DNA from: Paraspadella gotoi
Lineage: Eukaryota; Animalia; Chaetognatha
NCBI GenBank assembly: GCA_051294375.1
Contig: CM119263.1
Coordinates: forward strand, 638,122 to 702,121
Length of the DNA: 64,000 bases
Direction: 5' to 3'
Shown here: one piece after another, positions 131 through 25,161 of the stretch
Position numbering within the stretch: position 1 is the stretch's first letter
Layout: every line of letters starts with the position of its first letter
The notes under the pieces: generated by a model
The model's input: the letters and a program-made list of their open reading frames with translations, nothing else
Database searches by the model: none
What the model was told of the DNA's origin: nothing
Translations under genes and position numbers: made by a program

Positions 131-275
131 TTAGAGTGACGGCGTGGCGTGGCGTCGTGGCGCTGTGTCGAGGCAGGCGCCGTCGTCGTCGTCTTCCCTT
201 GTTGTTGTTGTTGTTGCCTCTTCCTCCTCGAAGACGATTGAGAGAGATGAAGAGCGATTACGAGACGGAGAAAGC
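131..275 (-). CDS. Gene A terminal exon (K)LSPSRNRSSSLSIVFEEEEATTTTTREDDDDGACLDTAPRRHATPSL*
   Basis: (CT)n+CAG acceptor; phase 2 matches the upstream exon; TAA at 133-131. Confidence 0.65.
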
Positions 276-3200
276 CTGAGAGAGAAAGAGAGAGAGAGAG
301 AGAGAGAAGAAGAGAGAGAGAGAGAGAGAGAGAGAGAGAGAGAGAGAGATAGATAGTAGAGAGAGAGAGAGAGAGAGAGAGAGAGAGAGAGAGAGAAAGA
401 GAGAGATGACTGATCAAAATCTACTTAAGAAGAAGTTTAATCTCAATTATTTCGCCGAAAGAAATTGTGACATCAGATTTTATTTATGAAGCTTTCTCTC
501 GCTCTCTCTCTCTCTCTCCTCTCTCTCTCTCTCTTCTCTCTCTCTCCTCTCTCTCTCTCTCTCTCTCTCTCTCTCTCTCTCTCTCTTTCTCTCACTCTCT
601 CTCAACCAAAGGCAAATGATGAATAATAAGGAAAGCAACTTCTGTTGTCCTTTTGTTTATGTCGAGCTTCAAACGTTTGCTTCCGATTTTATGACAACAG
701 ATTCTACACAATTACAAGCAAACAAAGGAACGGTCTCTCTCTCTCTCTCTCTCTCTCTGCCAGTTTTTTTTAGCAAACGTTTTTAGCGGTTGACATTAAA
801 AGTAATTACTGTTTTTTTTTCTTCTTTATGATTATTGTCTTTCATTTGATTCTCACTTTATTTCTCCTGTCATTTCGTTGAATAGAGATCCGATGTGTTC
901 GAAAGCCGTGAGAAAGTCGCCGCCGCCGCCGCTGCCGGGCGTCGAACGCCGGGACGAGGCGGCGTCGATGGCACCGACGCCAAAAGCAGAGATGGCGCCG
1001 ATGTCGTCGTCCTTTGAAGCGGAAAGGCGTCGCATCGTTTCCCGCTTCTTTTTCAAATTCTGAGAGAGAGAGAGAGAGAGAGAGAGAGAGAGAGAGAGAG
1101 AGAGAGAGAGAGAGAGAGAGAGAGAGAGAGAGAGAGAGAGAGAGAGAGAGAGAGAGAAAGAGAAAGAGAGAGTGAGAAAGAAAGAGAGAGAGAAAGAGAA
1201 AAAAAGAAAGAGAGAGAGACTTGAGTTGCCCATCAAAAAATTATGCGCATTTTCCACAGTTTCTGTCTTCAGTTTTTTAAGAATCTCATTTTGAAAAACA
1301 AGTTTCTCACGATTTTCCGAGTTGAGAGGAAGAGACATTTTCACTTTTTCACACATTCACAACAGATAGTGACTTTCATAATTAGCTTCGTCAAATAAAA
1401 AGAAAAGGCGAACATCCGACAGTACAATAATTTCATTATTCTCATGTGATATTAGATAATATTATTAATATTATTACCTCCGTCAATTCCAACATTTTCC
1501 AGAAGTCTCGACCAAAAGATTCGTAAGGATTCTTTTCTTTAACCTGTCGAGATGAAAACTCAAAGATGAATGAATGAATTAATTAATTAATTAATTTTTT
1601 TTACATTGTAAAAAGCGCTGATGATGGCTCGCATCAGAGCCGAAACATGTCTGCTATTGCTAATACAAAAATCGATTACACCATGGTTAAAATTTAGACA
1701 AATTATAAATACATATCTGATTTTGTGAGGCGAATGCAAAATGATTTGTTGATTTAAATGTGTGATATTGACATTGACATACCGCCACAACATCGCAATT
1801 TTCACCTTTCGAGTCTCGTCGACCATTTTCCAAAATTCTCCACACATTATTTCCGATTTCTCGTCCTCTTTTTTCTGAAAAAAAATAAATCAAAGAAGAA
1901 AAAGAATTAAACTGCAAGATTTTCTCATTTTTTTAAAGATTTTCTATCAAAGACAAAGTGAAGCACCTGCAAAAGTTGCAGCATCTTGAAGAATTCACAG
2001 ATCAATTTTGCTTCATCAGCTCTTTTCGGCTTCTGGAATCAAAGTTAAAAATACCATAAAACGAAATAAAATAAAATAAAATTGTCAGAGTAATGGAGGC
2101 CTTAAACCACCAAAGCCTGTCCAAAGTCAGGGGCAAGATAGCTTATTTATTGAATGAATGGATAATTTTTATATTGGTTGTACTAATTTCATAGACAAAT
2201 GAAACATTTTTACGGCATCTTTCTGTAATACCATATAACCATTATAACAAATGATTCAACATAATCTTATTCATAAACAAAAGACATAAGGCGTTTCAAT
2301 TCTCTCTTAACTTTTCCTCTCATTTCTCACTTTGCTTCAACCATTCCTTTTTCGATCTCCCGATTTCTCTCTCTTTTCCGCCTAAAATATTCATGGCCCC
2401 CTGGCCGAAAAGACCCGCCATGTTTTACCAGGGCCCCTGGACCCCTCGCCCCCAACACCCCCCCGGCCACGCCCACTAGCGCCTCTCGCCGCCCGGGATT
2501 AATTTGCGGGGAACTGAAAGTCGACCTCGCGGCCTAATGATAAAAACTTCCATCGGGTCGTGCAAAAGGTCGGCGGATCTATCCCAGGTTATTTCGTTTT
2601 TAAGGCCGAGCCAATATGGGCGTCCGGTATTTCGCACCATAAACGCCTTTTAAAAACCTTGGAAAGCGCAAGATGGGGCGCCGAAAGCGCATGCGCAAGA
2701 TGGGGCGCCGATTGCGTATGCGCAAGATGGGGCGCCGATTGCGCATGCGCAGAGTTTTTTTTTAAATCCAATGGATTTCGGAAGTCGTGGGAAGAGAATG
2801 GGAATTAATGTTAGGTGAGGTCGGAGAGAGGGTAAGTAAGAGACGGATACGTAAGGGAGAGAGAGAGAGAGAGAAAGAGATAAAGAAAGAAGGAAAGTAA
2901 AAAAGATAAAAAGAGATGGAAAGAAAGTTAGAGAGAGAATGGGGTGGAAAGAGACTGGAGGCGAAAAAGAAAGAAAATAAAGAAATACTATGATTATACA
3001 CGGACTTCAATCTGGAGTTATACGAACTTGTTATTTCATCAAAATGGGGAGCGATCGGCTTAAAAATTGTTTTTGACTCAAACAAAATTACTTGAATTTT
3101 TTCCCCCTCAATTCGTAAAATTCTAGCTAGGATAGTTTCTATGTTATAAAAATTAAATTTCTAAAGAAGCAGCATTATTATATTATATAATATTTCGTTT

Positions 3201-24600: not shown

Positions 24601-25161
24601 TATAACGTTAAGTTTCGGGTAATAATTTTTAATATTTTTTATAAGTAATAACATTTTGATATATTGTTACTCATATATAGGAATTAAAAATCCCAGTCGG
24701 CGAATAAAAAATATTACCATAATCTTGTTACTTTAATACATTATTAACGTCATCATGAATAACAAAATATCATCAAAAATGAAACGTCACGCTAATTCCA
24801 TTTCCAATTCTGCTTTCAAAGGCGCCATGGCGCCGGCGGCACTCACTTAAAGGTGGCGCCGCTGCCACTCACTTGAAGGCGGCATCGGTGCCACTCACTT
24901 GAAGGCGGCGCCGCTGCCACTCACTTGAAGGCGGCATCGGTGCCACTCACTTGAAGGCGGCATCGGTGCCACTCACTTGAAGGCGGCGCCGCGACTCATC
25001 GTCGGCGGCGTCAACGATGCCATCTCGTTTTCTCCCGTCGGCGACAGCCGGACATCCGGCGTCCAGATCCTAACGAGTCGAGACCCATTCAACGCCGGCA
25101 GCGTCGGCGGCGTCGGCTGCGTCGGCAGCTGCGTCGCGGGCATCATCTCGAAATTGATCAT
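18645..25161 (-). CDS. Orphan gene B, 7 exons, ~271 aa; Pro/Arg-rich N-terminal half plus two DFW motif exons; likely paralogue of gene A
   Basis: Exons 25161-24977, 22646-22467, 22121-22028, 20731-20549, 19979-19932, 19854-19812 and 18727-18645. All junctions are GT-AG with phases 2,2,0,0,0,1. Total 816 nt, ATG to TAA, with no internal stop. Confidence 0.75.
24406..24553. repeat. 54-bp tandem repeat, ~3 copies
   Basis: AAATCATGTTAAAATC...GGGCTTACTTTTATA at 24406, 24460 and 24514. Confidence 0.9.
24835..24992. repeat. 26-bp tandem repeat (x6) spanning the gene B exon 1 donor
   Basis: ACTCACTT (the - strand AA|GTGAGT) at 24841, 24867, 24893, 24919, 24945 and 24971. Confidence 0.9.

Follow-up and report, generated by a model that had tools for sequence, protein, structure and literature searches.

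The 64,000-nucleotide (nt) stretch analyzed here, from the arrow worm Paraspadella gotoi (assembly GCA_051294375.1, contig CM119263.1, positions 638,122 to 702,121, forward strand; hereafter the window, numbered from its first letter), carries on its minus strand a gene made of many short exons, most ending in the same aromatic helix motif. It is very probably a single spliced gene with 11 repeat exons, and it represents a family that is real, expressed, conserved and apparently undescribed. We hypothesize, at a probability of roughly 0.55 and from sequence features, that the product is a disordered, phospho-regulated multivalent scaffold of predicted cleft-docking helices. The family's anatomy is readable: a fixed intron position, two helix classes, gain and loss of whole units, and phosphatase-type sites. 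One orphan family thereby becomes testable with peptides and offers a clean case of a new gene arising by exon duplication.

Repeat exons and their conservation

A preceding sequence-only reading had listed ten motifs on the minus strand, all of which lie in exons bounded by AG...GT; it overlooked an eleventh repeat exon (20247-20200) and a false-looking duplicate (6057-11229). Its observation that the second aromatic residue falls seven codons before the splice donor was reproduced in eight of its ten exons, the exceptions having five (13835-13791) and eight codons (1874-1806). The motif with a GT at +7 occurs seven times on the minus strand of 1-25300 and zero times on the plus strand or in the rest of the window; 100 shuffles gave 0.05 on average and never more than 1. 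The repeat DNA is indeed diverged, with a mean identity of 47% and a maximum of 64% over 39 nt in 45 pairs. Relatives were protein clusters from environmental or run assemblies, with sources that include a marine catalogue. A matrix derived from 42 matches in three relatives (one match spurious) and run over all six frames ranked nine window exons top, eight of them with GT directly after; the repeat 2 exon, likewise followed directly by GT, was the second-best match of this relatives-only matrix.

Across 273 repeats from 22 relatives, the consensus reads E-x-phi-[AFV]-G-[DEQ]-F-[WF]-[KR]-M-[VI]-E-x-x-[QE]. The amphipathic helices proposed earlier are predicted from the hydrophobic moment, which peaks at 100 degrees (0.57 vs 0.30 shuffled). 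Full-length members hold 10-15 repeats by a pattern count that misses divergent ones, spaced 15 to >50 residues apart, with many spacings of 21-25. Two helix classes can be distinguished, one with F at -4 (the second aromatic position being 0) in the first three or four repeats and one with a small residue there in later repeats; F at -4 together with W at 0 occurs in 53/273 repeats, of which 52 belong to the first four. Besides the helix, 22/22 relatives have one or two copies of another module, F[VT][AV][DT]..G.[VI]F, which is predicted to form a short hairpin and was not found in the window.

In eight proteins, 101 of 105 repeats had their nearest match in another species, ahead of every sibling in the same protein; the duplications are therefore old, and each position has been kept separately. 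Against L001, nonsynonymous divergence (dN) was below synonymous divergence (dS), at 0.42 vs 1.74 over 204 locally aligned codons, values that are near saturation and biased to conserved parts. Both results agree with the earlier proposal of old exon duplication with selection on the peptide.

An apparently undescribed family

A profile of nine exon peptides retrieved P0001-P0004; a run against 1.84 billion representatives added four family clusters along with a repeat protein that proved spurious. This search, of the kind that the sequence-only reading had advised, led to the relatives' protein clusters and to no described family. A full-length profile identified 27 clusters among 7,993 candidates scored (length 144-1357, E 3e-25 or better), none of which is an NCBI or UniRef entry or bears an informative name. 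The window exons are 35-43% identical to 18 relatives, and in a tree the window sits on a long branch of unsure placement. The more distant L002 (1-234), a member with its last 77 residues covered, keeps the C-terminal NNDRKCG..W end. P0032 (E 3e-12) was rejected as an unrelated low-complexity tandem repeat; P0030 and P0029 look like assembly chimeras.

Pfam at gathering score gave no family for nine proteins or for the 22 alignment members, and at E up to 1 no family common to more than 4/22 members. Among PDB chains, the full-length profile had 0 matches at E up to 10 and the exon profile one chance match (E 0.59). The family thus stays unrecognized in Pfam, PDB and named matches, as first reported. 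The ESM Atlas returned no usable match for P0061, which is uninformative either way. Exon 1059-859 alone found none among 179 candidates from a word index; because it missed relatives that exist, misses of that index are weak evidence. No description of this family was found in searches confined to open-licence text. The family and its motif appear new, with a design principle that is already known. Arrow worms hold ~2,250 gene families confined to the phylum, the majority lacking known domains (PMC12460157, in excerpt), and orphan status is for this reason not surprising in itself.

One spliced gene in a faulty assembly

The sequence-only reading had divided the exons between two tandem genes, an upstream 'gene B' and a downstream 'gene A'. 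In full-length relatives the exons of B come first and those of A follow in one reading frame: P0001-P0003 and others carry every exon peptide in the same order and a single frame, and full-length members span MVNF...PVRIWTP to NNDRKCG..W without a change of frame. Because the relatives hold both parts in one frame, we conclude that there is one gene, not two; a duplicate riddled with indels next to an assembly gap gives the appearance of a second. Segment 6057-11229 is a second copy of 13017-18750 across a gap of 100 N and contains frameshifted twins of repeats 4 and 5. The copies differ by 23 substitutions and 156 gap events in ~4.3 kb aligned, with 105 gap events in homopolymer runs. This is likely a false duplication at a contig join, in the pattern of uncorrected long reads.

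Two paralogous tandem genes are accordingly very improbable. They would accord with the existence of the duplicated segment in the assembly, with RNA contigs placed on 100-5522 only and not across the gap, and with the phase of exon 5516-5450, which misfits a direct join from repeat 5. However, the B part carries only N-terminal motifs and the A part only C-terminal ones, the two parts share a frame in relatives, and the duplicate shows the signature of error. The KP.R..GLK[KR]A segment, formerly read as a mark of both genes, is no family feature, GLKK being present in 0/22 relatives. One of its two sources, the PKPFRGLKKAA exon (12972-12909), had no counterpart in 8/8 relatives tested (z at most -0.1) and is absent after the duplicate copy. 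As assembled, the length of repeat 6 is not a multiple of three and must be explained by a phase-2 exon upstream of it, an acceptor further inside or an indel.

Splicing was assessed with contigs of four runs (X1, X3, X5 and X7) placed on 100-5522. In contigs of X7 and X5, the five predicted introns that separate repeats 6 to 11 are skipped (joints 1541/1804, 1874/1967, 2032/4514, 4591/5327 and 5371/5450) and the last two exons are joined, with adjacent contig pieces at 856-1051 and 100-271. Four of the five skipped introns have minus-strand GT-AG ends; at the fifth, 30 letters lie between the two sides. Seven 3' exons are thus joined at the predicted sites, the outcome of a junction check that had been recommended. 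None of these joints occurs in X1 or X3, where intron-containing contigs are present instead. X5 is labelled 'DNA?' yet is RNA-like, with exon depth of 49-165 and intron depth mostly <30; among the runs listed, no matching one is recorded as RNA. In X7 contig 24, the 287 letters before position 1051 equal four repeat exons plus eight bases, and this sum makes it likely that six exons lie on one contig. Against the single-gene model stands the confinement of RNA-based support in the window to the 3' part.

The same contigs correct the assembly. Two single bases are missing from it at 5371-5299, in the LWKIV exon that had been said to need an indel. One extra base at 196 is lacking in contigs of 4/4 runs; once it is removed, the frame continues up to the edge of the window, and the earlier 3' end at 131 is not confirmed. 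The C-terminal family motif at 46-20 lies in another frame, which implies one more indel. Locally, the assembly is thereby corrected for a likely false duplicate and for no fewer than three indels, through which the gene appears divided and cut short.

At the 5' end, the first coding exon aligns to residues 1-12 onward in 7/8 relatives (z 3.1-7.9; P0034, z 1.4). Exon 3 has no detectable match in the relatives (z at most 1.5). P0074 runs past the end of the repeat 1 exon (20549-20731) into apparent intron sequence. A 26-nt unit repeated 6.3 times at 24829-24991 copies the donor of the first coding exon, leaving several GT sites after it.

A satellite with a unit of ~42 nt occupies 10350-11050 and 17880-18580 inside the duplicated segment, and a ~200-nt element with inverted ends, likely a miniature inverted-repeat transposable element, occurs at 7066-7266 and 14020-14244. 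A short dispersed repeat of very high copy number is found at 2080-2200, 6240-6355 and 13198-13315. Between the duplicate and repeat 6, a GC-rich patch (5780-5900) has open frames on both strands and no plus-strand Pfam match.

Table 1. Exons of the repeat gene and adjoining features in the window, in order of transcription of the repeat gene.
Feature	Position	Strand	Basis
First coding exon (MINF... VRIWTP), N-terminal family motif, predicted	24977..25161	-	Sequence alignment to relatives
Exon 2, conserved small helix and degenerate PP1-type site	22467..22646	-	Sequence comparison with relatives
Exon 3, predicted, proline-rich, frame kept	22028..22121	-	Sequence; least certain exon
Exon with RNPYR, W.FPT and repeat 1 (FRDFWKSL)	20549..20731	-	z 10.7-17.9 in 8/8 relatives
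Repeat 2, 48 nt, phase 0-0, C in place of W	20200..20247	-	Matrix match, then GT
Repeat 3, 48 nt, phase 0-0	19932..19979	-	Matrix match and relatives
Repeat 4, 45 nt, phase 0-0	13791..13835	-	Weak but colinear match, z 1.5-5.1
Repeat 5 (PKENLAAEFW), 66 nt, phase 0-0	13583..13648	-	z 7.4-11.6 in 8/8 relatives
PKPFRGLKKAA exon, cut by gap, candidate member only	12909..12972	-	Exon of the sequence-only reading
Scaffold gap of 100 N inside the gene	12809..12908	.	Assembly
Repeat 6, 67 nt as assembled	5450..5516	-	Donor confirmed by joint 5371/5450 in X7 and X5
Repeat 7 (KPWEAP... DLWKIV), 75 nt in contigs	5299..5371	-	RNA-type contigs and relatives
Repeat 8, 78 nt, phase 0-0	4514..4591	-	Joints at both ends, X7 and X5
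Repeat 9, 66 nt, phase 0-0	1967..2032	-	Joints at both ends, X7 and X5
Repeat 10, 69 nt, phase 0-0	1806..1874	-	Joints at both ends, X7 and X5
Repeat 11, 66 nt, phase 0-0	1478..1543	-	Acceptor joint; donor deduced from the record offsets in X7 contig 24
Exon with conserved basic site KRETMRRLS, predicted PKA-type	857..1059	-	Contigs and relatives
Last exon seen, predicted PP2A-B56 site LSIVFEEEE	1..275	-	Contigs; frame runs off the window without extra base 196
RasGRF-type neighbour exons (IQ, RhoGEF), outside the repeat gene	26460..33933	+	Pfam

Variation in repeat number

Copy number was compared between 119 listed members and their cluster references; in three clusters of 21, 26 and 19 members, 15 listed members each were compared, and P0033, P0036, P0072 and P0004 were assigned by hand to the clusters they resemble. 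Whole repeats have been lost or gained among sequences that are 96-100% identical elsewhere. Counting the sequences that cover each site, one repeat of 16-18 residues is present in 5/15 and absent in 10/15, a 22-residue repeat is absent in 3/13, and repeats of 16 and 26 residues are absent in 1/13 and 1/17, respectively; extra FW-bearing inserts were seen in 2/7, 2/3 and 1/16. The 16-, 22- and 26-residue deletions end at exon ends of the window. Eight of 15 groups had no whole-repeat event, and one had chimera-like breaks only.

Cassette splicing, putative here, is the simplest account of these whole-repeat differences, which may be isoforms, alleles or sister species. Three points speak against it. 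The 90% clusters may pool sister species, the deletion in P0030 breaks mid-motif in the manner of an assembly chimera, and no exon-skip joint was seen in this animal among the joints listed (15 of 45) for 100-5522. Of the earlier suggestion that exon skipping tunes copy number, change by whole repeats is supported among relatives, and skipping in this animal stays putative. P0004, which lacks a 16-residue repeat, was considered as a case of exon skipping and set aside: it matches P0056, which points to a species trait.

Calpastatin and Sfi1 are repeat proteins of the symmetric-exon kind. Duplication of symmetric exons is a frequent origin of disordered proteins; in tau and ameloblastin, tandem copies of same-phase exons supply repeated binding modules whose number splicing can vary (PMC3632108, in excerpt), the arrangement predicted here. 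The present family has another motif and no sequence relation to those proteins, and its unit is one exon of 15-26 residues with a fixed intron position seven codons after the aromatic pair.

A predicted docking scaffold

We hypothesize that each F-W helix docks into a hydrophobic cleft of a partner. The helices would fold on binding, in the register of the p53 helix on MDM2 or of the dynein LIC1 helix on adaptors, with hydrophobic residues at -4, -1, 0 and +3. Splicing would set the number of helices offered. The basic tails, with kinase-type sites and a predicted PP2A-B56 site (plus a predicted PP1 site in relatives), would provide a phosphorylation switch. The two helix classes suggest, as far as their sequences go, either several kinds of partner or a gradient of affinity. 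A further elaboration, which we regard as doubtful, is a lineage-specific 'valency dial', in which one gene would offer the two docking-helix classes as a cassette, one helix to an exon. Tissue-specific splicing and a PP2A/PP1/PKA switch would then determine which partner is held and in how many copies, and the first repeats would serve as decoys of the MDM2 or dynein-adaptor type. If this elaboration is true, the family would provide a natural series, indexed by exon, for learning how a multivalent scaffold is tuned by the number and order of its motifs.

Structure prediction is in line with a disordered chain. Two AlphaFold2 runs gave separate helices and no fold (predicted template modelling score 0.18 and 0.17; predicted local distance difference test 30 and 39); the modelling that had been recommended thus yielded the helices, at low confidence and with no overall fold. 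By the charge-hydropathy line, seven of eight proteins class as disordered. Hydropathy revealed neither a membrane segment nor a secretion signal; the tails are basic and the repeat region slightly acidic.

The tails carry conserved short motifs. L..[IV].EE is found within 200 residues of the C-terminus in 21/22 relatives, the miss being the truncated P0070, compared with 0.7% of shuffles; it follows a basic stretch and is also present in the window's last exon. The pattern fits the PP2A-B56 motif [LMFI]xx[ILV]xE with acidic residues after it (PMC10970375, in excerpt), and a basic patch by the B56 site is described in PMC7108865 (in excerpt). Near the N-terminus, [KR]RV[ST]F occurs in the first 180 residues of 14/22 relatives vs 0.07% of shuffles; the corresponding PP1-type site in exon 2 is KRRAVI in the window and of the KRRVTF type in relatives. 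RETMRR.S is present in 20/22 relatives.

Several findings weigh against the scaffold. The register -4, -1, 0, +3 is large and hydrophobic throughout in only 109/273 repeats, and 108/273 have a small residue at -4. The AlphaFold2 alignments were shallow (9 or 22 sequences) and low confidence is no proof of disorder; the charge-hydropathy margins are small. In the window, position 4 of the B56-type site is V, a weaker residue there, and the PP1-type site of exon 2 is degenerate and lacks F; causes other than B56 binding could also explain why an acidic serine run is conserved.

Alternative functions and known systems

The strong moment at 100 degrees would also suit helices that bind lipid surfaces (membranes or droplets) in the manner of apolipoproteins, perilipins or dehydrins rather than a protein cleft. 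This reading agrees with the K/R next to the aromatic face, the D/E of the polar face, a near-neutral core and the many spacings of 21-25 residues, and the repeats resemble what we take to be class A helices. By contrast, sequence is kept position by position across species, probably more than a lipid surface usually demands; the helices are short and split by variable linkers, hydropathy gives no secretion signal, and no such Pfam family is found in the 22 members. We consider lipid binding rather unlikely.

A similar, marginally lower standing is given to a structural protein in which the helices pack together as a bundle, oligomer or filament. Such packing would bury the 11-15 aromatic faces, which need burial, and would explain the positional conservation; full-length transcripts were often assembled from mixed samples, which suggests abundance. 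Irregular spacing and tolerated loss of single repeats argue against it, as does, weakly given the shallow alignments, the lack of packing in both AlphaFold2 runs.

GoLoco/GPR proteins such as AGS3, LGN and Pcp2 carry several short helical FF-type motifs in a disordered chain, and the repeats could be worn-down GoLoco or GBA motifs regulating G-alpha subunits. Q at +7 in 38% of repeats and a presumed likeness to F-F-x-phi-phi-x-x-x-Q, with the exon end after Q, are compatible with this origin. In the forms we assume for these motifs, however, the GoLoco D/E-Q-R triad and the GBA pattern phi-[ST]-phi-x-[DEQ]-F-phi were each found in 0/22 relatives; there is no Pfam GoLoco match in 22 members and no TPR domain. 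This alternative is highly improbable. Other presumed likenesses fared no better: the MLCK-type actin-binding pattern DFRxxL, as we take it to be, was found in 0/22 relatives, the presumed Sfi1 centrin-binding pattern [FL]xxW[KR] had 3 matches in 22 proteins vs 273 repeats, and DFWxMxW, which we assume for the motif 5 helix of protein tyrosine phosphatases, had its final W in 0/22, with no phosphatase domain of that type.

Activation-domain-type helices in a nuclear protein, or MDM2/SWIB-cleft decoys competing with p53-family proteins, are improbable. F-x-x-x-W-x-x-[VIL], the p53 triad (PMC10303687, in excerpt), occurs in 21/22 relatives, in the 53 repeats noted above, and is confined to repeats 1-4 in 52/53 cases; repeats 1 and 3 of the window carry it. 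Yet 220/273 repeats lack the pattern, which is generic for an amphipathic helix, and there is no DNA-binding domain. The repeats share the register of the p53 transactivation helix on MDM2 (FxxxWxxL) and differ from it in the small residue at -4 in later repeats.

A close likeness for the docking reading is dynein LIC1, in which a short amphipathic helix in a disordered tail presents an aromatic pair and a hydrophobic face at -4, -1, 0 and +3 (L444, F447, F448, L451) and binds three unrelated folds (PMC7655957, in excerpt). Because one such helix binds three unrelated folds, the motif cannot name the partner. The two systems are not homologous: LIC1 has one helix on a motor subunit, compared with 11-15 here, and [LVI]xxFFxxL occurs in only 6/273 repeats, most having W at 0.

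KNL1 is a phosphatase-recruiting scaffold with an RVxF-type motif. Like phosphatase scaffolds, the relatives have a predicted PP1 site near the N-terminus and repeated motifs between the two sites. The predicted B56 site is like the LxxIxE motif of BubR1 (PMC10970375, in excerpt): its positions 7-9 are acidic, and a basic patch precedes it. There is no homology to BubR1 or KNL1; here the repeats are aromatic helices, and the PP1-type site is degenerate in the window.

Genomic neighbourhood

On the plus strand, Pfam matched IQ (E 0.004) and RhoGEF (E 6e-11, 2e-6 and 0.012) in exons from ~26.6 kb, the first visible one having an acceptor; from its motifs, this neighbour is presumably RasGRF. It is plausible that the repeat gene is nested in an intron of this RasGRF-type gene. 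No PH exon was found in 90 plus-strand frames before 26400, a weak test. The 12972-12909 patch was rejected as a plus-strand RasGRF exon, with no Pfam support and 0 PH matches. Further downstream, a GC-rich minus-strand exon (47478-47740) looks by eye like helix 6 of a peptide G-protein-coupled receptor and has no Pfam match at E up to 1. On the plus strand, 33586-33858 consists of 3.8 copies (97%) of a 72-nt unit, which could be an assembly artefact and contains the acceptor and start of a RasGRF-type exon; the repeat is in frame and would provide either four alternative acceptors or an in-frame protein repeat.

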